From Marsupella aquatica (Eukaryota; Plantae; Marchantiophyta): a stretch of DNA of 64,000 nt. Below, one piece after another: positions 24,384 to 57,704 of this stretch (position 1 is its first letter; every line of letters starts with the position of its first letter). The notes under the pieces are model-generated. The model was not told the DNA's origin. It ran no database searches and worked only from the letters and a program-made list of their open reading frames with translations. Location: positions 10,359,660 through 10,423,659 of the forward strand of contig OZ316893.1 of assembly GCA_973895155.1 (NCBI GenBank), written 5' to 3'. The translations under genes were made by a program, and so were the position numbers.

Positions 24384-27300
24384 ATATAGCCTCCCTCCAA
24401 CATAGACCCCCTTCCCAACTTACCCCCTTGGCCCAAAAATACCGTTTGTAACCTTGACAATCCCTCCATATGTTGCCAGGGCCACAAGGACATCAGGATG
24501 CTTGCATTTGTCAAGCGCCACCACCCACACACCCATACTTACATGACCTTGGCATTCTAAAGTGTGGCACATGGGGGGCAAGTTCCACCGGTTTATGCAA
24601 ATCACTCCAAAGTCATACAACTTTGGAGCATTTTGCCCAAACTTGTGCCATGGCCTCAATACATGTATAAATGTGGCTTCAAATAAGTCTTTAAGATTGA
24701 AGTGGTGCAACTAGTGGTCCAGGGTTGATGGTGTCTCCGCCCTACTCCCTGTTGGCTGGGTAGACCACTTAATGTACGGCTCCATCCCTCCTAAGTAGGC
24801 AACCATAGGCCCAAGGATGCACCCAGTCATAACCGGCCCCACATCAATGACACCATCTTTGACAACTTTAATGACGCCTTTTAGAGTCATGGGCACAAAT
24901 GACAGCATTGGGGACTCACTAAATGACGCAAAAATGAGTTTACAAGCCTGGTACGTGATTGGGGTGAATGACTATCAATTACGTCATTCCAGGAGTAAGG
25001 CCAATAGTCATGGAGTGCAATCACTTGAAAGGGAGTCAATTTTGGAGTGGCTGGTATGTCATTCCAGTCAGTGGAAGTCAAGTCAAGGCATAACTTTACT
25101 AGAGTCTTATCAAAATTATATGGCTGGACTCAATGGATAATTGGTGCTAATGCTCCCTGGCACAATGTTGAGGTGAAATCCAATGTTAGTGTTGTCATCC
25201 TTCCAATCTAATATATGTTATTGCCTCTGAAGAGTGTAGGGTGAGATGTAGGAGCAAAAATTTATTCCCAAGCGGTAAAGGCATTCTCAAGCATAAATTC
25301 CTAAGTCAAAGGATTTTATGCATAAAATTTAAGCCATAGGTCATTCCTAAGAACATCATATTAAAGGTCATTCCTAGGTTAAAGGATATATACCCTAAGG
25401 CCTTAAGTCTTCAATATATTCTTTGGACTGAACCTTTCTCATATCACCTACACGTACAAACAAAAGGCATTTGCAAGTTGTTTACATAGGCCACTTAAGT
25501 ATGTAAATATCCCCGACTACAATGAGGGCATGGTTCATCAAACCAAGGTGTCATGAACAGTGTATACCATGAGGCCATTTACTAATGACTCAATTAGTAA
25601 ACCATAATTAAACAAATTAACTTCTAAACGCGTAATGAAGGGTTAGGAACCAGGTAGTGAACGAAGGAAAGCAGGGACGCGGAGGGATTGCTCTGCTCTG
25701 CTGTCGTCTAATCTCCTCTCTTCTAGTCTTCGCGCTCTTTTCTGTGCGCACATTTTTGCGACGATATATCCTTCGCGCTCGTTTCTGTGTGTAGATTTTC
25801 GCGACGATATATCCTGACGAGTGATCGATGAACTATCTTGAGAATGGCTCTTCATTCTGCTTAGAGATGATGCAAATGTTTGTTCATAGTAGTCACTAAG
25901 TGAGACGTGCATTCAATGGTATGTCGACGCAAAATTAGTACTCACTTGCCCAATGTTCCTTTTGATTGATGAAGTTTCTTGAAATCTGTAAGCGCATAGT
26001 TTTGGCTTCACAATTTCATGGACTTAGTTCTTGACTTAATTTAGGGTTCAGGTCATTCTCGGTGTTCATCAGGATATTTTCCACTCTTACGGTCAAGCAA
26101 TGGATTCACGGGTTTTCTAGCAGGAGGTGAGGTGATTGTTTAGGGTTTAGGCGACAAGACATGTGCCCAAGTGACGCAAGAGGAAGAGGGAGGAAAGGAG
26201 CAAGTTGCTATGACTATTGAGGTGACAGTCTGCGCTGATCTACTAGCTCCATTGTGTAAGTAAAAAAACTATTGCTATTGTTAGTGATTTGGTGTCTTTG
26301 ATTGTGGCAGTATATCCTCACTGAAGTTTTGCTGAAGACATACTTTGAAAGGCCTAGCCCTACAGAGCCGAACCATTCTCCCCAGTCTTAGACAGAACTC
26401 TAGTGATTGCAATTCTATTTTGTGGTGGGGTCTCGTTTTGAAGTGGGCTAGCTAGCGATCCCAACTTTTGTGCTTGTATGTATATCCTCCCGATATACAT
26501 TGCAGTGTTCTTGGTTGAATTGTGTCGCACCATTGTGGTCGTCGGAAGCAATTTTTTGAATCGCTTACCTTACATTCTTCGATAATAGAATTTTTGGTGT
26601 TCAAAGTTCCGCAAATTCTTACCCTTGGGAATGGGGGGATTGACATTATCTTCCTATATTTACCATTCTGGTTGTTAGTTATACCAGAGGTTGGCTGCAA
26701 ATTCTTTTAGTGAAACTGTTAATCATCTGGACTAACTTATTTAGTCATTGCAATTTTTTTATTGTCTGGATTCTCTACGGAGCTGTATTGTGAGAGACTG
26801 GAATAAAAAACGGAGCCAAATCACTAGTACATTTTGAGGCATTTTACCGATTGTATTTAGATCGGACGCCTTCAGGAAATCTGACGCGGAAATCTCACCT
26901 GTCCGATACCAAAAGAATCGCAATTTCCGATATAAATTTTATCGGAAAACGACATCGGAAACTAATCGGAACTACCGATACCAAAACATTTGGGAGTTCC
27001 GTCGCCTAAACTGTCGGGAAACACTATGTCCGATGCCCGCATAATTGGATGTCTGTTTCACGCATTTTCTGTTAGTGGAGGCGTCCGATTCTAGACCAAT
27101 ATTCTGGACATGGAAATGACCGATTGGTTTAACATCGGAAATGTCCGATGTTATTTGGAACGGAAATTGCGATTATAGTAGAATCGGACTTTGCGATACG
27201 TTTGGGATGGAAAAGTACGATGATTGTGGCATCGGATATGGATCGGTATCTACCCGGAAACTATTTGGCAAGCTTGATTGGGCCTATTTTAAATGGGGGG

Positions 27301-27615
27301 CTAATTGGGGGTTTAATTGGGGTGCAATTTAATTCTTTAACTGAGTTTTTATCTAGGGTTTAGAGAGGTCATTTAGTCAAGAGAGACTATCAATTTTGAT
27401 TGCACACTATGTACCTTGAAACCCGGGCATGACACGGCATAACTATATCTTATATACAAAAATGAAATATCGAGGGCAAAAGTACAAAAAATGGAGAACA
27501 TCTCCATGCATAGTGCTAGCTATGCTAAAGGCTGGGCATATCAAATGGACATAATGCCCTCCAACTATCCACCTCGCTAGCCTGGTACTAGATCTATACA
27601 TGTCTACCTAGTCCA

Positions 27616-30536
27616 CTATCCATACAAGCTATGTCGCGTCTTCCTCTTCTTCACACGGGAACGACTAGGCTGCTCTGCTCTATGAGTCTCTACCGCTGAC
27701 ACACCAGGTAGCACATCATGGTCGTGGCTACCTGATCTGCCTCCATCGTCATGTGGATGAGGTGCAGAAGCAATCTCTGGTACTCCCCCACCTCCAGATG
27801 CGCCTGAACCATGGGAAGGCACTCCTTCCCCGACACAAGTGTGGAAAGAAGCCCCTCCAGCACCACCACCACTACCCCCCTCAGGCCGAGTCTCACCTCC
27901 ACCACTATGACGGGAACCTCCCGACTGGGTGCCTACACCACCACTATGAATAGGATATGGTGTGGGCACATGACCACCAAGGCCCCCCCCGGACTGTCGC
28001 AAACCAGCTGGTACACTACCAGGGCTAGCCCTAAACTGATGAGGTGCAGCAACTCCACCACTACCCCCCTCAGGGCGAGACTCACCTCCACCACTATGGC
28101 CGGAACCTCCAGACTGGATGCCTACACCACCACTATGAACAGGAGATGGTGTGGGCACATGACCACCAAGGCCTCCCCCGGACTGTCGCGAACCAGCTGG
28201 TACACTACCAGGGCCAGCCCTAAACTGACGAGGTGCAGCAACTCCACCACTACCCCCCTCAGGACGAGACTCACCTCCACCACTACGGCCGGAACCTCCA
28301 GACTGGATGCCTACACCACCACTATGAATAGGAGATGGTGTGGGCACATGACCACCAAGGCCTCCCCCGGACTATCGTGAACCAGCTGGTACACTACCAG
28401 GGCCAGCCCTAAACTGACGAGGTGCAACAACTCCACCACTACCCCCCTCAGGGCGAGACTCACCTCCACCACTATGGCCGGAACCTCCTGACTGGCCAAC
28501 GACATGACCAGTATGAACACCAGCCCGTTGTCGAGACCCACCTGGTACAACACCAGGGCCAGTCCTCACTCGACCACCTGCTGTGGCTAGAACTCCAGAC
28601 TCACTACGAACCCCTTGGTTGTGACCTACTTTGGCTGGAACCCGGGACTCACTCCGTCCACTCCTACCGGCTAATCTCTGACGAGAAGGAGGCATATCAC
28701 CTGCTCTATGCTCCATCCGGCGAGTGGAGCCACCTACACCCCGACCAGACTGGTGACGTCCACTCTCTCGGGGTCCTGACCGGCCACGTGCACCAGTAGA
28801 ACCTCGTACTGGAGCCTCGGCCACACTCCCCTCTGAAGCACTATCATCCTCCGCATCCTCCTCATCCTCCTCCCCCTCACCATCCTCCTCACTCTCCAAG
28901 TCCTCCTCACCCCCTGACTCATCCTGCACATAGTAACAATCTCCAATCCATATGTCATTCCGCAACATACGTACCAGCATGAAGCCATCTTTCAAATCAT
29001 TCTAATATCCGCACTTACCGAGGCCAACATGTCGTCCATGTGAATCTTTAGCGCCCGAGCACCATGCTCCTTTGCCAGCTTTCTCTCTGCCGGCAACAAT
29101 GGTCGTCCGTGCTCTTTCTCCTACACACCCAAACCATATGCCACCCCCAATACTAAGGTCAATTATAGCAACCCTACCCTGGCCTAATTAAACACCTATA
29201 TAAACCCTTCACCGTCAAAGACCCATAAGAACACTTAGCCGTTCATGCACAAGCTATTCAAAAATTTGAATATGTCCGATACTAATAGAATCGGTACCCT
29301 CGACAGTTCCGATTCTTTTTTATTGTCCGATGCTGCATCCGATACTTAGAGGATCGGACTAGAATCGGACCTTACATGCCGAAAGCAAAAAAAACTAAGG
29401 CATGATCGACCGACCTACGGGCATACAAAGACCTGTCCCGGGTTTGGAAGGGTTAGGCATTCGTCAATTGGCCTCAGGTGATTAGGGAGGAGGAATGCTG
29501 CTGAAGGAATGCATGGAGAGGAGGGGAATGGAGCACTTACAAAATCGGCCTTGAGACGCTGTGATCCGCCTTGCCCCATTCTGTGAGTAACCTTTGGCCT
29601 CTTTGTTACTCTCAACAGAGCTTTCATTAGCCAGGATGGTGGGTCTCCAAGCAGGGCTGATTTTGCTGACCATTGTTCAAGTTCTTGATGCATGGGTGCA
29701 GTATTCACCATCTCTCCTTGTTCAATCTTCTTCTGAGCTGCTTGAATTTCAGCTTCCCAGCGTTGTGTGGCTTGCCAAGCTCGAACCTGCAACTCTTCTT
29801 CAAGCCAGGCACACCAAGCATTCTCAGGAATCTCACCAGTTGGGCTTCCCCCTTTCCTGATCACCTCCTCATCCAGTTTGCATTCAGCCAGGTACTTTCG
29901 CATCTTCTCTCGTACATGATTTCGCATGTCTGCAAGTGAGACTGAGATCTTTTTGTTTAAGAATCGATCGTCCACAAACGACCCATTCAAAAATCTCTCT
30001 TTGATTTGCTCTCGAATTCGAAATCTCTCATCCTGCTTCTTCTTCCCCCAGTAGTCCATCGGGCCAAAATGAGACCTCACAATCTGCCTAACTTGACTCC
30101 CAAACAAACGATAACTCCTGGAGAGTGGAGCACCTCCCTCATTCAGAAACAATTTTGGCCTCTTGGCCCTATCCTCTGCCTTCTTTCGTTCCTCCTGAAT
30201 TCTCTGTCGTTCTGCAGCCCGAGCCTCCCTCCTTAGGCTCTTCTCCTTTTGTCTTGGTGATAGGGCTTCCATTGGCATCTCTCTCTCGTCCTCCCTAGTG
30301 TTACGTTTCCTCTTCCTCTGCAATCTCTCCTCCTCGAGTCTGGCTTGGAAAGCTTTTTCTGCATCAGTGATGGCTACCTTCTGGGAGCTGTCGATCAGTC
30401 CTTGAGTGAGCTGGGCTACCTGCAATGCAACCTCCGGCGAGAGCCCCACCTTCTCCCTAAACAATTGAGCCATGACTTCACCATAGCTGCTTGATGGCCC
30501 GGCACCATCTCCCATCCCTCCCGCATTCCCTTCCAT
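27616..30536 (-). pseudogene. CACTA-B accessory (TnpA-position) gene with a Gly/Ser-rich repeat tail; one premature stop
   Basis: Exons 30536-29541, 29120-29019 and 28923-27616 are in frame, with an HRMGQGG motif at the end of exon 1. The TAG at 28374-28372 sits where sister repeat copies have CAG. Exon pattern and sequence are homologous to 53131-51076. Confidence 0.75.
27865..28490. repeat. 189-bp (63-codon) coding tandem repeat, ~3.3 copies
   Basis: TGTGGGCACATGACCACCAAGGC recurs at 27961, 28150 and 28339. Confidence 0.9.
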
Positions 30537-31600
30537 CGCTACGAGCTCTGCAAAGGTATCGTGAAATGCTCCCGATGCTTTTCCGACTAGAGTGCCTTCG
30601 CACTTTAGTCGGGTGACCTAAAAACCCAAAATGCATAACGTCCGATACTTTCTGCATCGGAAACTCCGATTCTAGGTCAATCGGACTTAGTATCGGACCC
30701 CTCCTCCAAAGTATCGGACTTAACCCTCCCAATGTATTTTCTGATGGTTTGTGAATCGCATGACCTTGGCATTTGGACTTTGGCATTTGGATCCCATGTA
30801 TACTATAATGACCCCCTTTATGTTAGTTGGGGGTTAATTATGCTATATTGTGGGCTTATTAGGTGTGCGGCGCAAAACGGGCATATCAACGTACAGTTGC
30901 CGTGACAAAGCTAGCACACTATTTTTTGGTGGGTATGGATGATCATTGAATGTATGTACCCAGATCTATTTTCAGTTTGATTTTAAATGATTCCCATTTT
31001 GACCATGAGGCAATGCTATATGCATGGTGCAACTTTTGGGGACTATAAGAAGTCACAAATTAAATTAACACTCTAGTGCCGTTTTGTGCAGTTTTGTATT
31101 TTTTGTTTTTGGAGGGTCGGGTCGTTGCTTTTCCTTGGTTTTCTTAGTAGGGTTTATTTTTGCCAATGCATTATGCACAGCGAGAGTACGCGCATCCAAA
31201 AGGTATGACATATATGATCCTCCAAAATGTATTGGAAATATTTGACATGATATATGCGTTACTTGTGGGAGTTTATAATTGGACATCCAACTCATCATTG
31301 ATTTTTATTAATTTCATTAATTATTGGTTTGTTACTTAGGTTTGCATGTATGTCATCTCATCTTTCAACTTCCCCACCTAGCCTGTATGTGCAGGTTTTT
31401 TTGGATTGGCCTTAGCATATAGTCTAAGGCTTAGAGCCTAGTAGGCACTGTAGAGCGCGGATATCATTCAGGTACTAATTAAGTCCAACACTGCAAATTA
31501 TTAACATACTATATATTTCCTGTTTGGGTTTACCTCAAGTTAGGGTGATGAATCAATCTTGCATTTTGGTAAAGACTTGTTTGTGTGTAATTGGCAGACA

Positions 31601-32904
31601 ATGTCGACTTCTGAGAGTTTGGATACAGATTCCGACTCTGACTTGTCTTCCTCTGAGGGGGACATTCCTCCTCCCCCTCAACAGCCTCGAGCACCCCCTC
31701 CATTAGGCCCTATTCCATGCTGGTGTCTTAGATGTAAAGGACTGGTGGTTCGTCAAGCGTGGCAGTCCATTGAACACATCGAAAACTATGGTCGACATGA
31801 GGGTGATTTACCGGGATATTCAGCTTGCCAGGTATTGCTTGACATGAACTCCGCTATATATGATACACTATCATAATAGTTGGCTGGTTTGAGACCTTTT
31901 AGGAGACAAGTATTAATTTTTGTTTGTTTATGATTGAATAGGTGCGTTGTAGGGCCCGTCCTCCATTGGTCTCTAGTCAACTATGGCATGATGCATTCCT
32001 AGCTGGTGCTAGACAATTGCTTGCATCATCAGTTGAAGACCCCGAGCAATCATGTACCCCCGCACATGTTCAGGCAGATGTTGTTCATGAACCCATAGTG
32101 GTAGAGTTGGGGCATGGTAGGGATGATGCACCGCCCCCTACTAGGGTTCTACGCACAAGACCACGTTCTCATAGACGTCGACAACAGCATGTAGTTCTAG
32201 ACACAGACCCATCCCATGAGCACTTTAGAAGGAGTGTTATGCCTCCACCAGGGGAGGAGTACATAGAAGTTGAAGGGAGGTTGGGCTTGTCATATGTGAC
32301 GGGAAAGGCAATCAGTGTCTTCAAGGATTTTGACCCTGAGAGTTTTGCGATTCCTCGTGGCCTAGCCATTGACATCCCTGTACATATATGGGGTCGGCAA
32401 TGGATAGTGAAGGCATCGACCCTTGGCGGGGAGGTTGGGTTAGGCTTATTTGCTTTGGAGGACATTGAGGTCCCTCCAAAGCCTTGGCGTCGTGGCTATG
32501 ATGGGGAACACCTTTTCCCTTACATTGGGCCTGTGTATACATCCAAGAGTTGGAACATCCTCTTGCGCCAACATCCAGCTTGGGGGGTATATGCATTGCA
32601 GATGGACTCAGACCCAGATGAGGTCCTAAGGAGGCCTTGGCATTGTAGGATGATTGATGGGGACCCTGTCCGTTCAGATAACATAGTTGGGTACATCAAT
32701 AGTACACATGGTAGAGGGAGTGGACTCTAGCCTAATGTAGAGTGGGCTCAGATTTTTGGCCCACCCACTCCGCCTTACTATGTCACACATATGGATGATC
32801 ATGTTATGACAGTAGCCATACGGACCATTAGGGCGGGTGATGAGTTGTTTTGTGACTATGAATGGAACGCACCCACGATGGGCATTCGATCTGGCCACAC
32901 TTAG
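31601..32904 (+). pseudogene. CACTA-B zinc-finger + SET-domain protein (short isoform); one premature TAG at 32728
   Basis: Exon 31601-31831 (acidic tract, CWCLRC...H..YG.H) joins exon 31942-32904 in phase 0. SET motifs: GLGLFA, YIG, NIVGYINS, PNVEW, VAIRTIRAGDELFCDY. Confidence 0.8.
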
Positions 32905-33013
32905 CACATATGTGTATTCCCCATTTTTGAAGTAATATAAGAATATTGTAGTTTTTTTAGGAACCCATGGGCTAACTCAAATGTATATATCTGTTTTGTG
33001 CGTTGTATGATAG

Positions 33014-36000
33014 AATGCATATGTTGAGCCGGATGTTGGGGTGTTACCACGAGCTATGCGCCAACACCTTGTGCAGGCCATGGAAGATTGGCGACATGCC
33101 TCTCTACCACCAGATGGCGATCCGGATGTTCCAGAGCAGGAACCAGATGCCTCCCAATCAAGAGTTGATGAAGATAGGGCCATGGATGACTTGATGCACC
33201 AATTCTATGACATAGAGGATGGTGATCATGACATGGCTGATGGGGAGAACATTGAGGTCCCACTTCCACATCAAGAAGGTTCAAGGAGTTCAGCCTCCAA
33301 ACAGTGGGAGGAAGCACGTCAACATGCGCAAACTCGGATATTTGATGGATCACGCTTGTCTCGTCTTTCAGCAATAATGTTGTTGTTGAACTTGCAGCAA
33401 AGACATGGAGCAAGCAACCTACTTCTTGATGATCTCTTTCGGACATTGCATGATTGTATCTTGCCAGAAGGAAACAACTTGCCAGACTCTTGGAAAGAGG
33501 CAAAGAAGGTGTTGAAGTCCATAGGTCTGCAGTACGAAGTCATACATGCTTGCGTGAATGATTGCGTTCTGTTTAGAGGCACTTATAAAGATGCAACGTC
33601 ATGTCCTACATGTGAGAAGCCTAGGTATCGTGAGGACATGTTGACGGGAAAAGTTCCTCAGAAGGTCATGAGGTACTTTCCTCTTATACCTCGTTTGCGC
33701 CACCAATATAGATGTGCTGAGTTGGCTGAGTATATGGTTTGGCATTCCCAAAATCGCTCAGATATGAGTTCACAACCACCCACCATGCGCATGATGGTTG
33801 ACTCCCCTACAAACAAGTTTGTGGAGGAGAGATGGGGTGAGTTCCGAACTGACCCACGTCATGTTCGCCTAGGATTGGCAGCGGATGGCATCAGCCCATT
33901 TGCACTAGCAGGTAAGGCCCAACCATATTCACTATGGCCAGTGGTCCTTACTAATTACAACATCCCTCCATGGATGTCCATGAAGAAGGGTCATTTGCTC
34001 CTTTCCATGATTATCCCTGGTCCTAAGCAAGTGAAAAAAATTGATGTGTACTTGCAACCATTGATTGAGGAGCTACAAAAGCTTTGGAGTGGTGTGGATT
34101 GCTATGATGGTCGAGTGCAAACGGGGGGCTTACGTCGAGAATTTAAGTTGAAGGCCATTCTTATGTGGACCATACATGATCTTCCAGGTATGAATCTTTG
34201 TTAAATTATCCCTTCCCATAGCTAGGCAACCGTACCTAGCATACTTTGTTATGTATTGAGTTAGCTAGAAGCACATATATCTTTTAATAAACTTATTTAC
34301 TTATGCATGGGATATATATTTATATGCAGGGTTTGGATATATTTCTGGCCTGACCACATCAGGATATCGAGCTTGCCCAACTTGTGGACCTGATTTGGAA
34401 GGAATAGCGCGGCCAAAGTCAAAGACCTTGAGGAAGATAGTGTATATTGGTCACACCAAGTACCTCCCTCCAGACCATGATTGGAGGAGAGACCCCTTTT
34501 TATATGACACTGAGGATGGCCAACCAGACAGACGACCACAACCTATTCCAAAAGATCCTGCATATTGGAAAGAGGTATGGGAGAGAGTATCTAATCCAGA
34601 TGACCCATTGCAATATGCCTGGTGTGGCATGACTTGTTTGTCTGCATTGTCACAACTGCCTTATTGGGCTGAGATGCCACTTAACCATTTATTTGACCCT
34701 ATGCACATTGAGGGAAATGTTGGGAGGTCCTTGATTCGCCACCTATATGGAGAGAAAGACAACAACTGGAGAGAGAGTTGTGAAGAGATGGGGATGCATG
34801 GCCCTCATGGTTTTTGGCCATCTATGGATCCCGATAATGCCCCCCTTACTATTCATCCTCCTTGGGTTTTGACACGAGGTGAGCGGACCGAGTTTCGCAA
34901 ACGCATAGGGTCTATGCGATTTCCTACAGGGTATGGTGCCAATCTTCGCAAGGCATTTGGTGGACTTGACTCTCCAAAATGGCCAGCTTTCTTGAAGACC
35001 CATGATTATCATCGCTTATTGCAACATGTTATTCCAATTGCTATTATTGGATTGGGTAGTGAGGATCTTCGTGATGCCCTTTGGTCGTTGGGTAAGTTGT
35101 TGAGATGGGTGTGTCAAAAGGAGGTGAACGAGGATGAGGTTGCAGCAATGGAGGTGTTTGGAGTGGAGGTTGTGTGCAAACTTGAAAGGGCCCTTCCTCC
35201 TTCATTTTTTGATGGTCAGGTTCATTTTCTACTACATCTAGTGCGTGAGGTTGGTATTGCAGGCCCTGTACATTGTCGTTGGATGTACTGGGTAGAGCGG
35301 TACATGGGAGTGATGAAGTCCTATGTTTCAAATCGCGCAAGGGTGGAAGGTAGCATTGCAAAGCGTCATCTTGGAGCAGAGAGCATGTTTTATTGTACAA
35401 ACATTATTGCTACACTTGATTCAAATGCTCCAAGCGGGTGGATAGATGAGGCATCAAGAGAAGCAGACTATGAGGATGACCGTTTGACAGGTGCAAAGGG
35501 AGAACGGCTTCTTGACCCTAGTGAGCACACTAAACTCACTGCATTCATGTTGTATAACTCTCCAGAGATTGTTGGGGAGTGGACCACATTTTATGAGGAG
35601 GATAAGCACAATAGTCGACGACCACGCTTATTTCCCAAATTCCACATGTACATGAAGGGGAAGTTGTTAGAAGTGGATGCCTTGGTGGTTGTTGGGGAGA
35701 GTGTATCACACTTCCCAATGGTGACTGATAAGTTGCGCACCTTGGTTCATGGACCTCTACTTACAGTTACAACCAGGACTGCCATGTGGTCCAAGGGGAG
35801 ACACTTTCGTGTGGAACGACTTGATGACAAGAGGGCAGCTACACAAGATTGTGGGGTGATGGGTTGGTTCACCCAGGATTCTGTAAGTAGCAGATCTGAC
35901 ACAAATCCCATCCGTTCTACTATAGCTCACTATGGAAAGATAGAGGAGATCCTTGTTGTAAAATACCATGCGCATACAACATTGGAAGAGGTGGTGCTGA

Positions 36001-36281
36001 AGTGCAAATGGTTTCGGATGAATCTTGTTGGCCACAATCGAACATGTGAAGAGGATGCTTGCGGCTTCACAAGACTGAAGACAGGGGCTGTCATCAGCTC
36101 AAATTGGAGGGCCTCAGATCCTTTTGCATTTCCTCATAATCTTGAGTAGGCATTCTATCTCCCTTATCCAGATGATCCTGAGTGGTCCATTGTAATGCCT
36201 TACATTCCACGATCCCGATCCATAGTCCAAGAACAGCCAAATGTAGTTGTTGTGGAAGATTTGGAAAATGAGAACAACTAG
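33014..36281 (+). pseudogene. CACTA-B TnpD-like transposase (Transposase_21, DUF4218, DUF4216 regions); shares first exon 31601-31831
   Basis: Exons 33014-34187 and 34330-36281. Motifs: IHACVNDC, RHVRLGLAADG, WPVVLTNYNIPPW, HDLPG, DPMHIEGN, KTHDYH, FFDGQVH, RWMYWVER, DPFAFP. One late TAG at 36147. Confidence 0.92.
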
Positions 36282-38459
36282 CTACTTAGGAATTTCATGG
36301 TAAAAGCTAGGTAGCTAGCACTAGCTAGACCTAATTAATGACCACTTCCCTCCATGTATTGACTTTTTCGGCATATATATGTTATCTACATTGTCATTAC
36401 CATTTTTTTGTTGCATGTTACTTTACTTATATATACCACTTAAATCTTTGGGCTCTAGCTGTGGCTATATATTTGTGCTTTTTAATATATATGAAATGAA
36501 AGCTTCCAATTCATTTCAAGTTGACCCTAGTTGAGTTCCCACATACTTCAAATGGATGTGGAGTCAAAAACCTATCGGAAACACAACATGCCTTAATTAG
36601 AAGCTAGGAAGATGATAAAACCCTCAAAAAACCCCGGCTCTACTGAAAACCGATATTTCCGATATTAAAAGAAACGGAACACATATGCCATACTACAGGT
36701 ATCGGGAAACTTTTCCATCTTTATCACATCGGAAATGACGTCCGTTTGTAATGGGTTCGGACACAAGTCGGAACATATTTCCGATTCCAAAAATATCGGA
36801 AATGTTTCATCCCTAAGTTCATCGGAACCAACATGCGATGTTTTATTTATCGGACGCCTCTTGCGTCGCGGTAGTCTCATTGTCCGATGCAGGTAGAATG
36901 GGAAATTCTCCGATAGTTTTTACATGGGAAACTATTTCCGATTCTAATAGTATGGGACAGTATGTGTCCGATGTAGAATTTATGGTAAATCCCCGATGCG
37001 GGGACAATCGGAGAGTACCGATCTTCTCTGTATCGGAAAGTGTTGCCGACCGAAAGAAGAGCATCGGAAAAACCCAAAATATGTACCAGTGAATGAACAT
37101 TGATTACACTGAAAAGATTGAAGCTCTGAAAATATTCCCTCTTCTGTTTGTGGATTTTCAGATGGACCATATTGCTGTCTATATACATCTGGCCAAGTGC
37201 GCAACGCAAGGCTCAACACAAAGGGAAGAGGAAGGAAAGGAGGAGTTGTGACGGTTCGCGCTCGACGGCATTGAGTAAGTAAGTAAACACAGAATGATGG
37301 GCATTTCAAGTATAGATTTTTGTGCGCCTCGAATACCAAGGCCTTCTTTGTTACATGTTCATAGACAAATTGCTCGTGATGACAAGTTGTGGCGCCGAGA
37401 GAAGATGGCAGCTTTGCAAGTTGGTGCTACTGTGAATCGATGCCCTTGCAACTAGTGTGCAGGAATTCGTAATGTTAGTGTCATGAATGTCCAGAAGCAC
37501 TTAGTAAGATATGGTAGGCATCCTTGGCATCGGGTTTGGCGAGGTGAGGAACATGATTCCTCAGATAATGAGTGGAATAGTGAATATATCCCAGGGTACT
37601 GTCATGGAGAACATATTCTGACCGAATCTCCAGATGCCATGGAAGAGGTCAATCCAGTCCTTGATGTTGGCATTGATGTCGACCGATTTTTAGGTGATCC
37701 CTTTTCTACGCCTAGTCCATTGAATGAAGCAGAGGAAGTTCGGACAGATTTTGTTGAAGAGGAACCTGAGAATGACCACTTTGACTTTGATTCGCTGTTT
37801 GACACCGATAACTCTAGTCCACCCACTGCCGAGCGGGGTGCTGAGAGCAGTAGCCCTCGGGGGTCTCACTATATGGAGGACCCCCCATCACCTGCGACGT
37901 TTTCATGCCTAGACCCCCATACTTATTAAGTTGAAATTTTTTTCCTCCCTCTTTCTTTCTTCTAAGAGTCTAAAATCCAAATTGTATTGCCCCTATAATT
38001 TGTGAAGTAAAGTGTCACATATCAATATAAAATGCCTAGAAAGAAAAGATAAGTCTATGTCAGTACCTTGTGAAGTCGTATGTCAGACATGGCACGCCCT
38101 GCAACAGTTCTTGCACCTTTGTCGACCTTAAACTTTGATCATTTCAATGCATCATTTATATTGTGTACCTAAAAGGTCATCCCAATATAAACCTTACGTG
38201 CATAAGTGGGATGGCCTTTAAGGTCACAACATAAATAATCCATTCCACCCATTGATCACCAATCCCATGCTCCATCCATACTCCATTTAAAACTTATGTT
38301 GAGAGATGTAACATGTGACGGAGGGGAATTGAACCCCTAATTGAGAAAGGATCTCAAGTTGCCAATCCGTCACCCCCTATCCTATCCCACTACACCCACT
38401 AATATTAACAAAATAAAACATATATACAGACTCTCAAAAACTAAACAGTAACATGATAT

Positions 38460-43036: not shown

Positions 43037-43535
43037 TGCAATACAAATCTAGAACATGCATAGCACCATTGCTTTTGGAGTCGATAACAGAAAGACCTGC
43101 ACAAATACATTTGAAATACACACAAGGGAAACACATTAGGATCTTCAAGAGATGCAATGACAACATACACATTCTCATGTCAGTAATGTACATAATGTCA
43201 GCATACATTTAACAATAGAAGTGCTAATAGGCCAAAACACTTTATAATGCAATCCATCATACATGCAAATGTATTCAGTGAAAATCATGATATACCGTTA
43301 AAGTTGGATAAAATATCTTTAGAAAAAATATCCTTTTTGCCTGGTTTTCTAACAATTCCCGAGGTTTAGTGGTTTTGCTCATCAAAATGCAGCACTATTA
43401 GTGATCGTAATTATGACAAAATGTCAACACTAATAAAATTGGGTACTACCACCCATGATGCAGCTTAAGTATATGCCTTGCTCATACCCCACTAAGACGT
43501 TGAAACCTAAGTAATAGGTTTATTCATTATTCAGA

Positions 43536-47610: not shown

Positions 47611-50600
47611 TGTTTAGACCCCCGTTTACACCATTTTCTGCAAGGTACAAACAAAAGAGTCTCTCGTCCCAAACAACGGGTGGGGCCAAAGGGATAGTGG
47701 AGGGAAACCACACGGGAGGAGACTGACAAGGGCCAATTGAGGGAAATGAGACATGTTAACGGAACAATTCAAACTTAATCCCGGTCAAACCCTAAACATG
47801 AGTCCCCCAAAACCAGACCCACTTAAATCATTCTCAAATTCTTGCCATGTTAAACATGACTTAGGAAAATATATTGGGAATGTTATGTGTGCCATGTGTA
47901 CCAATGATATAGTGCCACGTGTAATTTACATAGTCCGATTCAAGGACCCCCTAACTTCCTTGTATGCCTTCCATCTACATAGTCAAAAATATTAATATCC
48001 CTATTGTTCTTACAAGTTGTCCAACATATAAAGTCGACCCTATTGTTCTTACACAAATCTTCTTAAGTCTTCCGAGAAACCCAATTAACGGACCCTATAC
48101 TTAGTCGCACGTGATATGAGATTTTCGCGAAGTGAGACCCCCCTGCAGTAGCCAAGACATGGATGATCCCATGGATCTTGCATTTACAGAGGCATGCACT
48201 CCATTGTACGAGGGATCAACAACTTCACAATTAGCTTTTGTGTTGTCTTTTTTGAACATTTGCCACAACAATGGCTTTTCCAATTCGGGAGTGGACAAAC
48301 TCTTGAGTGCGATGGGGGAACATCTTTTACCACCTAACAATTTGCTACCTCAGAACATCTACGCATGTAAGAAGCTGATCAAAAAGGTTGGATTGGATTA
48401 CATTAAGATTCATGCTTGTAAGAATGGTTGTATCCTGTTTAGAGGAGATCAATATAAAGATTTACAATAGTGTTTAGAGTGTAAGGAGCCCAGGTATAAG
48501 CAAGTGGGAAAGTCCAAGCAAGCTGTGAAAGTCCTGCAACACTTTCCTCTTATTCCATGTCTTCAACGGATGTATAAATGCCAACCAAGCTATTTCAAAG
48601 TTGATGACATGGCACAAGGAGAACGGCAGTACTGATGGCATGGTCAGACACGTTGCAGATTCAAAGGCATGGAAGTGGGTGGATAATGAGATTGACAAGG
48701 ACTTTGCTGCAGAACCACGCAACATCCGCCTTGGTTTAGCACTTGATGGTGTCAATCCATTTGGAAACAACAACCTGAAGCATTCCACATGGCCATTAGT
48801 CTTGTTGAACTACAATCTTCCCCTTGGCTATCTACAAAGAAGTTCTTTGTAATGCTGTCATTGTTAATTCTAGGGCCTGAGTCCGTGACAGACATAAATA
48901 TAGATGTATACATGGCTCCTCTACTTGAAGAGCTGTTGGAGTTGTGGAAAGGAGTGAACTGCTTTGATGTGGTAGACCGGCCAGGCAAAGATAAAGTCTT
49001 TACTTTACGAGCTGTGCTTTTATGGACTGTCAATGACTATCCAGCATATGGGCTAATCTCTAGACAGGTGACCAAAGGATATAGAGGGTGTGTTGTATGT
49101 GGTCCTGATGTGGAGGTCCGAAGGTCAAATGCTCTGAGCAAACAGGTTTTCCTAGGTCATCGACGATACTTAAGATTGGATCATACGTACAGGAACATAA
49201 ATTATGCAAAGTATTTCAATAGGAGATGTGAAGTACGCCCGGCACCACAACCAATGACATGCACAGAGAGGATGAAGTATGCAACTGACGTAGAAACTTA
49301 CTTGAAGAAACAAGGGGCTAAATTTGGAAGCAAGAATTGTCCTTCAAAAGTGCATGGAGTGAAGCGAAAGCCAACTCTGACTCAACTACCATACTGGGAG
49401 GTACAATTCTTGGAAGGGTCCATGATGTTTTGATTAATTGATAGCAATTGAAACAATCATGCCACTAAATTGCTTTTCAGTCCTGGCGTTCAGACATACT
49501 TCTAAGGGTGCTAATGTTTGATTTTCTGCAATGCAGAAGCTACTCATCAACCACACCATTGATCCAATGCACACTGAGAAGAATATTTCTGCAAATATAG
49601 TGCACACAATCAGCGGCAGAAAATATACTACAATTGTTCGGCAGGATATGTGTGCTGAAGGCCTTCACAAGAAGCTATGGCTTACTCCACACCCAAAGAA
49701 GGCAGATGCAATGTTAAAGCCCAATTAAAGCTCCTTATGTTTTGAGCCCTGGTGAGTTGATGTCATTCCATGACACGTTGAGGACATTGAAGGTTCCAAC
49801 CGATTTTGGCAGTTCCTTTGCCAAGTGTGTGAGTGCCAATAATAAGTTGGTTGGGTTAAAATCACATGATTACCATCAATTGATGCAGCAGATTCTCCCT
49901 TTAGCCTTAAGAAACCTTCTGGCCACGGGTCCTCGACTAGCTATCCAATGGGTATGCCGGCTATGGCGCAAGATTTGTTCAAAGGGTTGGGACCCATCTC
50001 AATTTGAATCATTGAAGCAGGATGTTGCATTCACTCGATGTGCTTTGGAAATGCACATTCCACCCTCGTTCTTTGATGTAATGACCCATTTAATGGTTCA
50101 TATTGTTGAAGAGCTTGACATTTGCGGCCCTGTAGCTCAAAGGTGGATGTATCCGGTTGAGAGATATCTTAAAGTGTTGAAGGGCTACGTTCGGAACAAG
50201 GCTTGTCCTGAAGCATCCATGGCAGAAGGTTACGCTTTCACTACTACACTATTGGCCCCTTTTGCGAACCCATACACATCGCAATCAACAAAGGCCCGAT
50301 AAACAGAATTCCGGCACTTGCGAACTAACATGCATCGCTACACCATCCCAAATTGCGAAGTTAAAACCTTCGCACGTGGACCATCGCAACGCCATCGCAA
50401 CACCATCACAATTTCCTAACCAAATTCCCTCGCAACTTGTCGAACACTTCCGAGTTCAAAATCGTTGCAAACGCTTCGCATTATGCCGCACGGTCCTTTG
50501 TTACCGATGTTGGTTTTTGTGAAGCTGGAAGGTTCGCTACGTGTTTGTGATGGGAATGAGTTTGATATTTGCGATGTCGTGGGGTTGGCAACTAGCGAGC

Positions 50601-51075
50601 CTTATAAGATCACTCTTATGCGAAATAAATTTGATGGGGACTTCTGATCTAAATTGGATCGGAACTTGTGAGTTGGTTTAGGCCAGAAGTTGGGAACCAT
50701 TTGACTTTGCAACTTGTGATGTTACTTGGTTCTATAATAGCGATCCGAGTCATTTTAGTATTTCCTAGTTATCCAAGTTTGCAATGGGTTCGCACTTTCA
50801 TGGGAACACGACTTTCAATCAATGTTTTGCAAGGGATTTCTCTTGGCAGTGGACCCAATGTGGAAGGCAAATGTTTTTTATAAGATCCATGCAAGTATAT
50901 AGGTGGATATACCAAAATGTTAGGGCTTGAATTAAGGAACCCAATACACAAGAGGGGTGGCATATCTGATGCCGGCCAAGTCACCCTACTCAACATATGC
51001 TATCCTAGCTAAGCTCCAACACGGCTAGTCATGACATGTATCTCATGAGCCCGATCATGAGATTCTACAAGCTAA

Positions 51076-53131
51076 CTAAAATGGACTCTTCCGACCCCGC
51101 TTTGTCAGCTTCTTTGCCGGCTTCTTGCCCTTATCCTTCTATGGATGTACAGCCTGGTGCTGACGGGTGCGCGGTGCCTTTCGGCGCTGCTGCTCCTCCT
51201 GCTCCTCCTCCTCCTCCTCCTGCCCATCCTCCTCCTCGTCACCTCCCTCCTGCTCCCCCTCATCATCAACCTGTCTTGATGATGCACGACTACTACCACT
51301 ACCGCGATGGGATGAACCTACCTCCCGGCTACTGCCCCTCTCCCTAGAATCGCTGGTAAGAGGAGTAGCCCCCTCATCCTCATCATCACTACTACTTGCG
51401 TCAGCACCCAACCCCTCAGGCTCATCCGAATCCTGCATCCGTACACTTAATCAGTTTCTACAAATTAAAAAGGGTCATCCACAATGTTGGCATCACAATT
51501 AATTAAACCTTGAACACCTAGATACTTACAGTAGCCAACTCGGCATCCACCATCTGAAAGAGGTACTTTCTCCCATGCTCCATCCCTATCTCAATATGTT
51601 TCTTGGATATCTTCCTCTTATATTTCCGGTACTGCCATGCACCATAAAACCAAAAAGTAAACCCATAGGCTAAACCAAAATTCACAATGCGAGAGGCCTT
51701 AGGCCTAGAAAAGTTAAACTACTTTGAAAACAACTCAAATTCACATTTGCAAAGCTAATGCGTTCACAAAATATGAAGCCCTAATTTTTGCGAAGGCATT
51801 GCGATGGCTTTTGCGATGCGCGTACCTTCGCAATAGCATCAGAAAATCCAAAAAGAAAAAAGTGCATAATAGAGTTTGCGAGGCTCTTGCGAACGAATAC
51901 GCATCGCAATGGGATTGCAAACTGTGATCCCGAGAGGTTTTTAAAAATGCGCAAATTTCTAAGTGTCAGTCGTGACCTAAAACAATGCACAAGCAAGCAC
52001 ATGAGAGCATGGACATTCATGACATTCCATTCACTTGCATTACCTCAACTGAGAAAGTAAGGAGGAAAGAGCTTAGGGAGGAGAGGAGACACTCACAAAG
52101 TGGGCCTTGAGACCGGGGAGCCCGCCTTGACCCAGCTTGTGGACTGGATTGGGGGTGGCTTTCACTCGCTTGGCTGCATCCATGAAACATTTGGGTGGTC
52201 TTCCTTCTTTGTCGACCACCTTTTGCACATCAGCTACCTTCTGCTCGAGTCCCTTCGGGTCATGGTCAAGGGGGAGCTTCACGGTCTCCTTTGCTTTCAG
52301 GGATCGAGCTAGTGTATCCTTCCATTGTTCCAACTCGCGAGCTGCTTTGATTTGCACCTCAATCTTGTAAAATGCATTCCAGATGTCCTCAGTGAATTGG
52401 AGGGGCCTGCGCAAATTCCTGTACGATCTCAAGTCTCTCAGGTGGGCTCTAATCTTCATCCTATCATGGTATCTCATTTGAGACATGGAATTAGAAATCT
52501 TGTCTGCCAGCCATTGCTCATCTATGTCAGCTCCATTACGAAATCCATCCTTGATCTGATTCATCACTCTCTTTCGCTCTGCCTTCTCAACCTTTCCCCA
52601 TTGCATGCCTCGTGAGAAATTGCTTGTGATGATTTGTTTGATGGTGCTCTTAGCCCCTGCATAGGCTAGCTCAGTTGGAGTCCCAGTTGTCTCCAAGGCA
52701 ATGAATGGAAGCTTTTTCCTTGCATCCTCTTTCTGACGTTGCTCATCTCGTTGTTTTCGAATTGCATCCCTCTCCTCTCTTCTCTTCTGTTTTTCTATGG
52801 CTTGAGGAGAGGCAACTCCCGACTTAGCCCTCTCCTCCCTCTTCCTTCTTTTCTCTCTAGCCTTCTCCTCAGCTGTGACCCTCTCTTCCTCGTCTCTAGT
52901 AGCTTGCCCTGCCACAATTCCTGTTTGCAAAACCTAGCCTAAAATGGCACTCAAGGAGGCAAGCCCTGCTGGAGTATTCAAATTTACTTCACCCAACTGT
53001 GCAGCACTGAGATGTTGGGCTACTAAGTCGCTCCATGCATTCTGTTGCTTCTCCTGATTTGCCCCATTGCCACTACCACCAGCACCATGTCCTCCACTCC
53101 CACCGTGCTCTCCACTCCCACCGGTAGCCAT
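51076..53131 (-). pseudogene. CACTA-C accessory (TnpA-position) gene; in-frame TAG stops at 52936-52934 and 51141-51139
   Basis: Exons 53131-52097, 51631-51530 (102 nt, the same length as in CACTA-B) and 51432-51076. HKLGQGGLPGLKAHF is homologous to HRMGQGGSQRLKADF. Confidence 0.72.
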
Positions 53132-53898
53132 AGCTCAATCCCTCTCAGGTCTCTCTCGATCTTCTCCCCGCGGCCCCTTCTCCTCTCGCTCTCCCGATCA
53201 AACAAGGAATGAGCTTGATGCGAGCTCCCGCCGACACTTACGCATTTCAAAAAAACCTCTTTGCGATCACATTCGCATCACAAACTGCCACCCTATTACC
53301 TTCGCAAACAGTCTTGCAACTTGCGATACTTTTGTGAAGAATATACCCTCGCTAATCCATCGCAACCCGTAGAAATGCCCAAAAATTGTTCTCGGCCTCT
53401 GTATTTGCGAAGATGTTGCAAACCCGGGAGGTTCGCAAAATGCATCTCTAATTTGTGAAGCAATTTGCGAGGCAGGTGATCTCGGTTTAGGGTGGGAAAC
53501 TATCCCAGGTGTTTAAACGGCTTTACAAGGGTATGGCCTATTTAAACCCTTTTAACTCAACATGGATTTGTGAATGGCCAATTAGTTTGAAGAAGAGGAT
53601 TTTAGGTTGTAGTTGGGCTTTGTGTTTTTGTTTTTGAATCTTAATTGGGTTCTAATTTAACAAAGGGTTTGAGTTTTAATTTGGGGTTTGGATTTAGAAA
53701 GGGTTTAGTTTAGGGAGGGTTGTGTTTCAATTGAAGGGGTTAATTTGGGTTTAGGTTTTAATGTAAGGGTTGGGTTTGACTTTTCACTGATTTCATATTT
53801 TTTGCTCTATACATATTTCAGTTTAGGGACATGGTTTTAATAGAGGGCTTTAAGTTAGGGTCTAAGGTAGAGGTTTGGGTAAGGTTGTAATTGAGAAG

Positions 53899-54256
53899 TT
53901 TGGGTTAGGGTTTAGGGTAGGGGCTTGATTTTGGTTTAAGTTTAGGGGTTTGGGTTAGGTTTAGGGTAGGGGCTTGATTTTGGTTTAAGTTTAGGGGTTT
54001 GGGTTAGGTTTAGGGTAGGGGCTTGATTTTGGTTTAAGTTTAGGGGTTTGGGTTAGGTTTAGGGTAGGGGCTTGATTTTGGTTTAAGTTTAGGGGTTTGG
54101 GTTTTTTTTAGGGTAGGGGCTTGATTTTGGTTTAAGTTTAGGGGTTTGGGTTAGGTTTAGGGTAGGGGCTTGATTTTGGTTTAAGTTTAGGGGTTTGGGT
54201 TAGGTTTAGGGTAGGGGCTTGATTTTGGTTTAAGTTTAGGGGTTTGGGTTAGGTTT
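53899..54256. repeat. 49-bp tandem array (~7 copies) containing TTTAGGG, within a ~1.1-kb G/T-rich telomere-like tract
   Basis: GGGCTTGATT recurs at 53921, 53970, 54019, 54068, 54117, 54166 and 54215. Confidence 0.93.
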
Positions 54257-55150
54257 TAAGTATAGGGGTTGGGTTCCATTTTAATTCTAAGTTGTGTTTC
54301 ATTTTTAATTGTGGGGTTTGGGTTAGGATTTTTGGGTAAGGGTTTGATACGTAATGAGGGAATATGGATAGGTAACTTAGGATGGAGTTTGAGTTAGGGT
54401 TTAAGGTAGGGGTTTGAGTAAGGTTTTAGCTGAGGGGTTTGGGTTAGGTATTGAATATAGGGGATCGATGGGTTCAATTATAATTCAAGCTTGTGTTTAA
54501 TTTTTAATTTAGGGATTTGGGTTAGGGTTTAGGGTAAAGGCTTCATAGGTAATGAGGGAGTTTGGGTTATGGTTTCAGATGGGGTTTGAGTTAGGTTTTA
54601 GCTGAGGGATTTGGGTTAGGGTTTGAATGTAGCAGTTGGGTTTTTAGCGTAGGGGTTTTGGTTAGCTAGGGCTTTGGGTAAGGGTTTTATATGTTCATGT
54701 TTAGGGTAGGTTTTTTTTCTAATTGAGGGTATGCTTTCTTTATTTCATTAACATGAAGGGGTAGAACACTCTAGGAGTTATAGGGCACTTCCCCATCGTT
54801 TTGAGAGTTTTGGCTAATGCATATGCATTGCGAGAGCTCGGGCATCTGAAAGGTAAAGCTTGTTTTCCTGGCATTTTTTATTTGTACTGTAACTTGAGGG
54901 TCTATCATCCCTTTCTATAGTTTACCATAAGTCATTGCTTAATTCATTGTATATTTGCAGATTTCTCCCTCCTACTTCCAGATTGGGTTCATCAAGTTTG
55001 GACCAAAAGACCTATAGGCATTGCTGAGCCCGGGTCTCATAAAGGTATTTTTTCCTTTCATTTCAGTTTAATATGTCTACTTAGGGATTACAAATGATCG
55101 TTTTAGCTATTTGTTTACTAACTCGCTATTCCAAATCTTCCACTTGCCAG

Positions 55151-56307
55151 ATGTCTTCATCCTCTACAACTTCCCCCACATCAGACTCCTCCTCTGATGA
55201 GGACATAGATCCTCCTCCTCAGCCTGAAACAGCCGCTCGTCGACCTAGTGGTCCACCACGCCAACTTTGCAGTTGTAAAAAATGTGTGGGGATGGTTGTC
55301 CAGAAGTCATATGTATGTGCAGACCATATTTCTCGATATGGACAACATCGAGGTCTTACACCCGGAGCCTCTTCATCCCATACGGTGAGTTGTAAACTTA
55401 CTATGGTTTATTTTTTATTCAATAAATATTGCTAGCATGATAAGTTGGGGAAGTTTACAATCACTTTGTTGGATTTGTTCCCTATAGGTATCTAATAGGC
55501 CTACACCCATGGCACCAGCACCCTATGTTCCCTCACAAGGAGTTCTAGATGCTATAGGCTCGGCCCTTTCACAAGCTTTCCGTTTAGTTGCAGCAGAGGG
55601 AAGTGGTGTTGGGACAGTTCAGGGTGATGGTATTGTTACACGAGGGAAAAAACGGTCTAAAAGGCAACCCAGAGGGGAAGTTGATCAGTACACCTGTAGG
55701 GTTGATGGTAGGTGGGGACCTTGTACATTCACAGGGAAATGTGAACATTCCTATCATAAAGGATTGGAATCCTGATTGCCTTGGTTTGCCATGTGATATA
55801 ACCTATGGTGAGGAAATAGAGGTTTGGGGAAGACATTGGATTGTCAAAAGTTCTACACTAGGGGAGAGACATGGGTATGGAATTTTTTCTTGCCAGGACA
55901 TCATTGTGGATGATATGGGTGGAAAAGGGCGCTCTCAAGATGGACCAACGTTGTTCCCCTATGGTGGACCCATTTACAAGCGAAGACATTGGAACATGCT
56001 CCTTGTACAACACCCTGAGTGGAAGACTTATGCATTGGACATGGATACTTTTGATGGTTGCACTAGGAAGTATAGTGAACAACGTATAATTGATGGTGAT
56101 CCCATCCGTAGTGGAAATATAGCCGGTTTCATTAACAGTACTGTGGGGACCCGGCCTAAGCGTAGGAAAAACTATGAATGGGTTTTTGTTGATGGTCCCC
56201 CTCCAGCACCATATGGGCAGAGATATCATCATGACCATTGTCTAGTTGTAGCTACTAGGACCATCAAGGCCGGAGAGGAGTTGTTTACACATTATGAGTG
56301 GGATTAG
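55151..56307 (+). pseudogene. CACTA-C zinc-finger + SET-domain protein (short isoform); frameshift near 55740, SET domain itself uninterrupted
   Basis: Exon 55151-55384 (CSCKKC...H..YG.H) joins exon 55488-56307. SET motifs: GYGIFS, YGG, NIAGFINS, VATRTIKAGEELFTHY. Confidence 0.82.
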
Positions 56308-56503
56308 GCTTATTTTAGGGATATGTATTATTTATATGTTCCTTCATGCTTTGTGAACATATATTTTGTAAGTTAGGGTTTACACCCTAAACCTATGATG
56401 TTCTTTCACATTGTATGTTAATAATATGTGTCGATATTGTTTTTGTCTTATGAGGGATTTAATTTGGAGTTTGATTGTGAATGCTTTATTGTATTGTCCA
56501 TAG

Positions 56504-57704
56504 AATGTGCGACCTAGCCAAGATATGTTGCCAAGGAGGTTGAGAGCTACATATGAAGAAATGGGCATGCCACAAGACGGAGTCACATCATCAACAGATT
56601 CTTCATCCAATGACAGTGACAATGAGGGTTTGGACGAAGGGGCACCTAGGACAGATTTTGAGGTCATGCAGGACCAGGAGACAGCCATGGATGACTTCAT
56701 GACAGATTGGTTTGGTGTGGACGCCCGTGTGGACGTTGATGGTGAAGGACGTGGACCACCCAATGAAGGAGCTCCTCCACCAAATGCTGCACATGACCCC
56801 CGACCTCAACATACACCAGAAGGTCAACAACAATGGGAAGAAGCGGAGGCACATGCTAGAACACCTATTTATGGAGGTGCTCGTTTGAATAGACTCTCTG
56901 CCATCTTGGCATTGATGAATCTTCAGGCAAAACACAAGGCAAGCAATGCCCTTTTATCGGATTTGTTTGCAATTTGCCATGACCTCATGTTACCTAGTGA
57001 CAATGTATTGCCAGGAACTTGGAAGGAGGCAAAGAGAGTTCTATCATCCATTGGTATGGAATATCATATCATTCATGCTTGCGTGAATGACTGCATCCTA
57101 TATCATGAGACCAATGCCAACATAACTGAGTGTCCAATTTGTCATGAGCCTCGATATGACAACAACATGTTGACGGAAAAGGTGCCCAAGAAAGCTGTCC
57201 GTTGGTTTCCCATTATTCCTCGATTGTTGCATATGTATCGATGTTCTGACTTGGCAGAATTGATGGTATGGCATAAGACACATCGATCAGAGGCCGGTGT
57301 CATGCGGTTGTCAGTTGACTCCCCTGCTCACAAGCATGTGGAGGCACAATGGCCAGAGTTTGCACATGACCCTCGTCATGTGAGGTTGGGGTTGGCATCG
57401 GATGGGGTCAGCCCACACTCCCTTGGTGGGAAAGGATGCCCAACATCAGTTTGGCCGGTGGTTGTTATGAATTACAATCTTCCACCATGGTTGTCCATGA
57501 AAAAGGGCTTCTTATTGCTATCATTGATTATCCCAGGTCCATCTAAGGTAAAAAACATGGACACCTATTTGGCACTATTGGTTGGGGAACTCCAAAAATT
57601 ATGGGACGGTGTGTGGGCCTATGATGGTCGAAAAACTACAGGGGGATTACCACGTGTCTTCAAATTGAAGGGAATCAATATGTGGACCATGCATGACTAT
57701 CCTG
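56504..57704 (+). CDS. CACTA-C TnpD-like transposase exon (Transposase_21); remainder displaced by the next insertion
   Basis: Motifs IHACVNDC, RHVRLGLASDG, WPVVVMNYNLPPW and HDYPG end at a GTAAG donor in the same position as in CACTA-B. Confidence 0.9.

Follow-up and report, generated by a model that had tools for sequence, protein, structure and literature searches.

SET-domain exons in the first intron of CACTA transposase genes of a liverwort: an old element gene with a predicted, possibly chromatin-directed product

Two CACTA transposons that lie within one 64,000-nt stretch of the Marsupella aquatica genome (GCA_973895155.1, contig OZ316893.1, positions 10,359,660 to 10,423,659; hereafter the window) each carry an exon for a SET-domain protein, and the question is whether this exon is a gene of the elements and what it might do for them. 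A first-pass annotation of the DNA had drawn attention to the two exons, which are indeed present where it placed them (Table 1). It had missed their setting: in both elements, CACTA-B and CACTA-C, the SET exon follows a short Cys/His exon 1 and precedes the transposase exons, i.e., in the first intron of the transposase gene, with which it likely shares exon 1.

Table 1. Features of CACTA-B and CACTA-C, in positions of the window.
Feature	Position	Strand	Remarks
CACTA-B, complete element	26822..37091		TIRs at both ends and target duplication
CACTA-B accessory gene (ORF2)	27616..30617	-	divergent from transposase; main ORF 29415-30617
CACTA-B exon 1	31601..31831	+	acidic/Ser-rich start, then CxCxxC...H knuckle; phase-0 GT donor
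CACTA-B SET exon	31942..32904	+	phase-0 AG acceptor, own stop codon; Pfam SET ~32437-32859
CACTA-B transposase exons	33014-34187 and 34330-36281	+	Transposase_21, DUF4218; phase-0 acceptor in frame with exon 1
CACTA-C, left part	50239..57790		left terminus; TCGCA/TGCGA subterminal motifs
CACTA-C accessory gene (ORF2)	52073..53131	-	start approximate
CACTA-C exon 1	55151..55384	+	CxCxxC...H knuckle; phase-0 GT donor
CACTA-C SET exon	55488..56307	+	phase-0 acceptor; protein stops 3 residues past terminal Tyr
CACTA-C transposase exon	56504..57704	+	Transposase_21 E 4e-38; phase-0 acceptor in frame with exon 1

CACTA-B has TIRs that match at 12 of 14 positions, CACT ends, and an AAT 3-bp target duplication on both sides. 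Its subterminal motif, TCCGA/TCGGA, is clustered at the two ends (12 and 16 per 0.6 kb, vs. 1.9 per kb window-wide). The accessory gene continues after its main ORF into a tail of 189-bp repeats with one stop (28372-28374); the repeats (27858-28519, minus strand) encode Gly/Ser-rich units of 63 aa that are 91–94% identical. A Pfam scan of this ORF2 gave no significant match, and its position would suit a TnpA-like role. The exon 1 knuckle, which is Transpos_assoc-like, has no Pfam match. The SET exon is a single frame interrupted by a premature TAG (32728-32730), and exon 1 and the transposase exons together make a predicted 1118 codons, with a premature TAG at codon 1075 (36147-36149) and Pfam matches to Transposase_21 (plus DUF4218) at E 1e-40 and 1e-28. 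The earlier statement that each copy carries one lesion is thus correct for the SET exons and too low for CACTA-B as a whole, which also has the TAG in its transposase and the stop in its minus-strand gene.

CACTA-C sits inserted within the transposase of a third element, CACTA-A, and keeps the gene order of CACTA-B (ORF2, exon 1, SET exon, transposase). The left termini differ (CACTAGTACA in CACTA-B vs. CACTACTACA in CACTA-C), as do the subterminal motifs, which in CACTA-C form a cluster of 12 in 0.66 kb (vs. 1.4 per kb window-wide). Past ~57790 CACTA-C gives way to unrelated DUF7869-bearing DNA, and its right end was not found within the 64-kb window, so that the comparison of the two families, and with it the claim that their ends differ, is limited to the left ends. 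The ORF2 proteins are 34% identical across 253 aa, and an Atlas search with that of CACTA-C returned no usable match. Exon 1 of CACTA-C scores 16.4 bits against Transpos_assoc, under the 27.7 cut-off, and the SET exon is broken by a single frameshift near 55745-55752. An array of ~49-bp units made up of telomere-like TTTAGGG variants (53650-54700) lies in the stretch from ORF2 to exon 1. The DNA that follows CACTA-C holds two long minus-strand ORFs (58394-61821), one with DUF7869 (E 4e-51), which start inside the CACTA-C transposase intron and are probably an inserted transposon of another kind.

CACTA-A itself is decayed and lies in two pieces: the probable first exon (37405-37929) is ~10 kb away from the transposase body, and we infer that the two belong to one element; this knuckle exon (Transpos_assoc E 6e-5) continues directly into an acidic linker without SET. 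A family profile search of the window in six frames found the CACTA-B and CACTA-C copies and no third, in agreement with the claim that CACTA-A has no SET exon, but CACTA-A is a weakened negative control, because it is decayed and CACTA-C is cut off after ~57790. The DNA between the two CACTA-A pieces (38460-44294, minus strand) contains an ORF with an NSD-like PHD finger (E 1e-7), followed by ORFs of 698 and 804 aa with no Pfam or NCBIfam match, and resembles a further mobile element that has a chromatin reader. Other features of the window are an NB-ARC/LRR gene (6538-9715, plus strand), an Spb1/FtsJ rRNA methyltransferase gene (12054-17614, minus strand), an ORF with an RNase H1 N-terminal domain (23544-24419, minus strand), a broken carotenoid-oxygenase (RPE65 family) gene fragment among transposons (46157-46867, plus strand), and an open frame of at least 471 aa (62586-64000, plus strand) that has no Pfam or NCBIfam match and whose IGGNH motif we take to be reminiscent of ParB-like domains.

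Read through their lesions, both SET exons pass the Pfam SET profile (PF00856; gathering cut-off 22.4 bits): CACTA-B, with X at the stop, scores 27.9 bits (E 3e-6), and CACTA-C scores 26.5 bits (E 9e-6). Cut at its premature stop, the CACTA-B SET gives no PF00856 match. The two domains, from two families within one stretch of DNA, are 46% identical. All four SET motifs that had been quoted for them (GLGLFA/GYGIFS, YIG/YGG, IDGDPxRSxNIxG(Y/F)INS and RTIxAGxELFxxY) are found in that form, and the other details described earlier hold for the family at large, namely Ser in place of His in the NH motif (79 of 82 rows of the family alignment), the catalytic terminal Tyr (65 of 67 rows), and the absence of a Cys-rich post-SET. 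On visual inspection, the first part of the SET exon (31960-32030 and 55520-55590) encodes an amphipathic helix that recurs across subfamilies and may, together with the knuckle, serve as an interaction module.

In both elements exon 1 ends in a phase-0 GT donor, and the SET exon and the first transposase exon each begin at a phase-0 AG acceptor. One phase-0 donor fits two phase-0 acceptors, so that two products are possible from the shared exon 1, and we consider it very probable from this layout that alternative splicing would yield either a knuckle-SET or a knuckle-transposase protein. The same signals recur in metagenome loci, with a GT donor of exon 1 in 20 of 20, an AG acceptor of SET in 19 of 23 motif matches, and an AG acceptor of the transposase in 20 of 23 loci with a mapped site. 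Gene models in which exon 1 is spliced to SET are annotated in five species of Sphagnum and in Calypogeia and Riccia, and some other models fuse part or all of SET with the transposase (P0097, P0121, P0131 and P0194). Because the SET exon has its own stop, each transcript that includes it would be lost to transposase production.

The family to which these exons belong is large. A query with the CACTA-C SET returned 51 relatives among 60 candidates, and a profile search of 1.84 billion representatives gave 124 clusters at 50% identity. Host names, drawn from 30 proteins looked up and from search match lists, are several Sphagnum species (annotated 343-aa SET models occur in several of them), Calypogeia fissa, Riccia sorocarpa and, distantly, Ginkgo biloba (Gb_21150); one member carries the label “bacterium” (metagenome assembly). 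None of the 30 relatives looked up is named as a canonical host enzyme. Domain scans of 65 family proteins and 8 more showed SET alone or SET plus Transposase_21, and 10 proteins scanned against NCBIfam gave no match. Three Riccia gene models hold SET plus Transposase_21 (P0097 and P0121 are named as Riccia; P0131 was assigned through its likeness to P0060), and with them the linkage reaches lineages ~45–50% apart. Two queries of viral contigs found no relatives, and three short haloarchaeal matches in GTDB were rejected as chance. Longer SET relatives (882–2515 aa) were absent among 3089 candidates, which is weak evidence.

The suggested linkage of SET to Transposase_21 is upheld by 35 metagenome loci: the transposase lies just downstream of SET in 21 of the 24 with at least 300 bp of flank, exon 1 lies upstream in all 18 with at least 600 bp, and, where the flank reaches 2200 bp or more, ORF2 is present at 10 of 12. 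At the three exceptions (L023, L030 and L031) the transposase is missing because the exon is cut there, and two of these share a break. Nearly all 35 loci represent one peat-moss-type family and are not, therefore, independent captures; five that share one terminus have four different left flanks. A tree of 72 rows (four added ones and all rows of the 87-row alignment that cover 130 or more of its 179 columns) contains a starred clade of 22 rows in which CACTA-B and CACTA-C belong to different starred subclades; this clade nests in a starred 48-row clade with Riccia lineages. The tree holds family rows only, without a host-SET outgroup, and so cannot give the origin. A distant, high-copy and often fragmented SET group on long metagenome contigs (P0196-P0255 and P0166) branches with the group of Ginkgo Gb_21150.

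Judged by sequence comparison, the SET exon is an old, selected gene of the element and not a recent host fragment, as had been proposed; dN/dS is near 0.2, divergence tracks that of the transposase, and the number of family clusters agrees. By the Nei-Gojobori method, SET dN/dS is 0.20–0.24 for CACTA-C against 15 of 15 loci (dS 0.8–0.9), 0.26–0.35 for L003 against 14 loci, and 0.22 for CACTA-B against CACTA-C, the last ratio being rough because dS is saturated (2.4). The transposase gives 0.14–0.23 (CACTA-C against 7 loci). Differences between the SETs of CACTA-C and L001 fall most often at third codon positions (0.19/0.14/0.42), and DNA similarity of introns is lost where the SET protein stays conserved. 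Pairwise identities of SET and transposase go together (46/55, 73/71, 90/94, 45/50 and 49/51%), and the SET exon is in the same position across families that are 45–55% apart. Within the peat-moss-type family, pN/pS is 0.81 for SET (91 pairs) vs. 0.51 for the transposase (21 pairs), and 4 of 14 full-length SET exons are open and 10 broken. SET is near neutral there, as expected of mostly dead copies, yet this is a caution. In the pairs of CACTA-C with L001-L016, dS of the SET exon (0.8–0.9) is below that of the transposase exon (1.25–1.6), possibly because of splicing signals or recombination.

That the domain has a real SET fold, as first proposed, follows from the PF00856 scores together with the predicted structure of an intact homologue, P0005 (~75% identical to the CACTA-C SET; pLDDT 94, pTM 0.88, 87-row alignment). 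The fold of the CACTA-C fragment itself, from a 16-row alignment, was unusable (pLDDT 46), and the same profile matched nothing in the PDB. With the P0005 model, the best Foldseek rows were SET8, LegAS4, MLL and ATXR5, with EZH2 also among the fold matches, and in VIA-align SET1, SET7/9, EZH2 and SET8 were tied (Z 11.5–12.1, rmsd 2.3–2.8, 124–135 residues; top match Z 12.1, rmsd 2.5 over 124 residues), so that the fold matches contain no signature of a histone class. Viral SETs match structurally at a similar level. A PDB profile search placed LegAS4/RomA best (E 1e-7), with host enzyme classes at E 1e-3 or worse, and in the Atlas LegAS4/RomA is the first structure outside the family; haptophyte SET clusters are listed there by features.

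The catalytic motifs are conserved in family rows down to 26% identity. The GxG SAM motif is kept in 74 of 78 and 78 of 79 rows, the motif-III Asn148 in 75 of 82 and Tyr/Phe90 in 81 of 81, and the terminal Tyr described above is residue 201. The NH motif has the canonical form RFINHS, and it is the His of this motif that is replaced. Two positions before the terminal Tyr the residue is small in 64 of 65 rows; by the Phe/Tyr switch, the family SET is presumably not restricted to monomethylation. Plant histone methyltransferases of the SUVH, ASHH, ATX, E(z) and ATXR5/6 classes have class-specific flanks (SRA, pre-SET, AWS, PHD and CXC); none of these was found in the 65 family proteins and 8 more, and the family proteins scanned have no pre-SET, AWS or reader domains. 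Past the terminal Tyr, 46 of 65 rows have a tail of 2–8 residues; the median is 5, and the tail has 3 residues in the CACTA-C type and 14 in CACTA-B. In SAM-bound SET structures, the post-SET contributes to the cofactor site, according to the accessible text of PMC3868588, and its near absence here places catalytic activity in doubt. A conserved extra N-terminal hairpin and helix (residues 7–50, pLDDT ~95 in the P0005 model) or a partner might, judging from the model, substitute for it. A homodimer prediction of P0191 residues 33–343 with SAM, in which the alignment was not used, scored 0.00 and is evidence neither way.

Our preferred reading, to which we give a probability of roughly 0.4, is that a knuckle-SET lysine methyltransferase produced through the alternative acceptor acts on the chromatin of the element and favours its activity. 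The shared Cys/His exon 1 would be spliced either to the transposase or to the SET exon, the latter giving a short knuckle-SET protein; the predicted activity of this protein is lysine methylation, for which histones at the element are the likeliest target, and the methylation would help to keep the element transcribed and mobile, by analogy with anti-silencing of the TnpA type. We lean towards a catalytically active protein, which may need a partner to fill out the SAM pocket. The histone substrate and the activating effect are putative, as is targeting through the shared knuckle or ORF2, and since both window copies are broken, the process would depend on intact copies elsewhere. A more far-reaching version, which we think unlikely, is that an ancient land-plant transposon lineage (mosses, liverworts, perhaps gymnosperm relatives) encodes a histone writer as the splice alternative of its transposase, and that this lidless SET would stay inactive until its active site is completed, at the element, by a partner that the element itself encodes, which would make it a self-targeted enzymatic anti-silencing switch.

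Other explanations differ in whether the SET matters to the element and whether it is an enzyme. A captured host gene fragment of the Pack-CACTA type, carried as a neutral passenger, would be at home with the broken state of both window copies and of most full-length peat-moss-type exons (10 of 14), but this reading is very improbable: it is largely refuted by dN/dS between families (0.2–0.35) and by co-divergence with the transposase, and it also sits badly with a protein that is conserved where introns have lost similarity, with the constant exon position across distant families, and with the lack of a canonical host enzyme among the relatives looked up. Somewhat unlikely, in our view, is a SET that is catalytically dead or crippled and works as a reader, shield or decoy, binding histone tails or a host silencing factor with no methyl transfer. 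It draws on the near loss of the post-SET, which normally completes the SAM site, on the exchange of His for Ser, and on the weak PR-domain scores of distant members, and the N-terminal hairpin and helix could be the binding surface. However, GxG, Asn148, Tyr/Phe90 and Tyr201 are held throughout the family, and the exchange is not disqualifying, because RomA is active with Phe at that position.

Activity might also be directed elsewhere. We regard as rather unlikely an active methyltransferase that acts on a substrate other than histones (the transposase of the element, its ORF2 protein or a host silencing protein) and so tunes transposition or stability. Such a role would agree with the exon shared with the transposase and with a SET that is free of pre-SET, AWS or reader domains, and SET enzymes that methylate non-histone targets are described in the accessible text of PMC10653858; against this, the nearest solved sequence relative, RomA, is a histone H3 enzyme. 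Distinctly unlikely is a SET that writes a repressive mark or restrains the element, the splice choice being a brake on transposase output. The cost of the SET exon to the transposase transcript, the H3K27me3 reported on green-alga CACTA elements in the available part of 10.1101/2024.09.22.614159, and the presence of EZH2 and ATXR5 among the fold matches speak for it, but these matches do not separate the SET classes, and the published element-encoded regulators VANC and TnpA, as far as the available accounts go, activate.

If the preferred reading, an element-encoded histone writer, is true, it would be a direct enzymatic counter-measure to silencing, in contrast to VANC and TnpA, which are DNA-binding anti-silencing factors. 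A strongly conserved SET that is almost without a post-SET would be a structural oddity in its own right. The question can be put to the test, since intact copies exist, the small protein should fold well according to prediction, and bryophytes lend themselves to such work. Moreover, the Sphagnum and Riccia annotations list members of the family as host proteins (“SET domain-containing proteins”), and these would inflate counts of bryophyte chromatin enzymes.

SETMAR is a host fusion gene and was rejected as a model, the CACTA SETs being multicopy elements. The claim of novelty needs to be narrowed. A literature search found no description of a land-plant CACTA with SET (Repbase Reports and preprint supplements being outside its coverage), but SET accessory genes have been published for other transposons: HarbingerS and oomycete MuDR in the accessible text of PMC12730594, and Helitrons and the red-algal Plavaka PAG2 in that of bioRxiv 10.1101/2025.02.11.637652. 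HarbingerS, oomycete MuDR and Helitrons resemble CACTA-B and CACTA-C in that they are DNA transposons that encode a SET-domain protein; they belong to other superfamilies and hosts, and their SETs are accessory genes, for which the accessible passages mention no shared-exon layout. Membership in HarbingerS is ruled out by Transposase_21 and the CACTA ends. Plavaka is closer, as it belongs to the EnSpm/CACTA superfamily (bioRxiv 10.1101/2025.02.11.637652), and PAG2 is described in that portion of the source as a long-conserved PF00856 SET with a proposed chromatin role. PAG2 is, however, an accessory gene of its own: its SET is fused with a DNA adenine methylase, and it belongs to a cassette of three genes that travels from one type of element to another. 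Here, in a comparison with PAG2 by description only, the SET exon is part of the transposase gene, whose enzyme is a Transposase_21, and would be spliced to a Cys/His knuckle. An N6-adenine methylase of the PAG2 type (PF01555) was absent from the family proteins scanned, and their transposase scores as Transposase_21.

For the protein, the best solved sequence match is Legionella RomA/LegAS4 (PDB 5czy, 8sr6 and 8swi; E 1e-7), which also has the highest VIA identity (28%). Like the family, RomA is without the NH His, and its lysine-channel residues Tyr148, Met174, Phe204 and Tyr233 (PMC10653858, accessible text) match Y/F90, L115, W/F163 and Y201 of the family, in numbering counted on the alignment. 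The same text reports that RomA, with Phe at the usual His position, trimethylates H3K14, and that its post-SET spans 19 residues and its ankyrin repeats bind the tail of H3; the CACTA SET family has neither such a post-SET nor ankyrin repeats. For the gene, the nearest parallel is En/Spm, including Arabidopsis Spm3, in which one CACTA gene gives both a transposase and an anti-silencing regulator (TnpD and TnpA) by alternative splicing (bioRxiv 10.64898/2026.08.24.746577, accessible part). TnpA is DNA-binding and transposase-derived, and that part of the account makes no mention of SET; in CACTA-B and CACTA-C, the predicted alternative product has the fold of an enzyme, and a separate ORF2 exists beside it.
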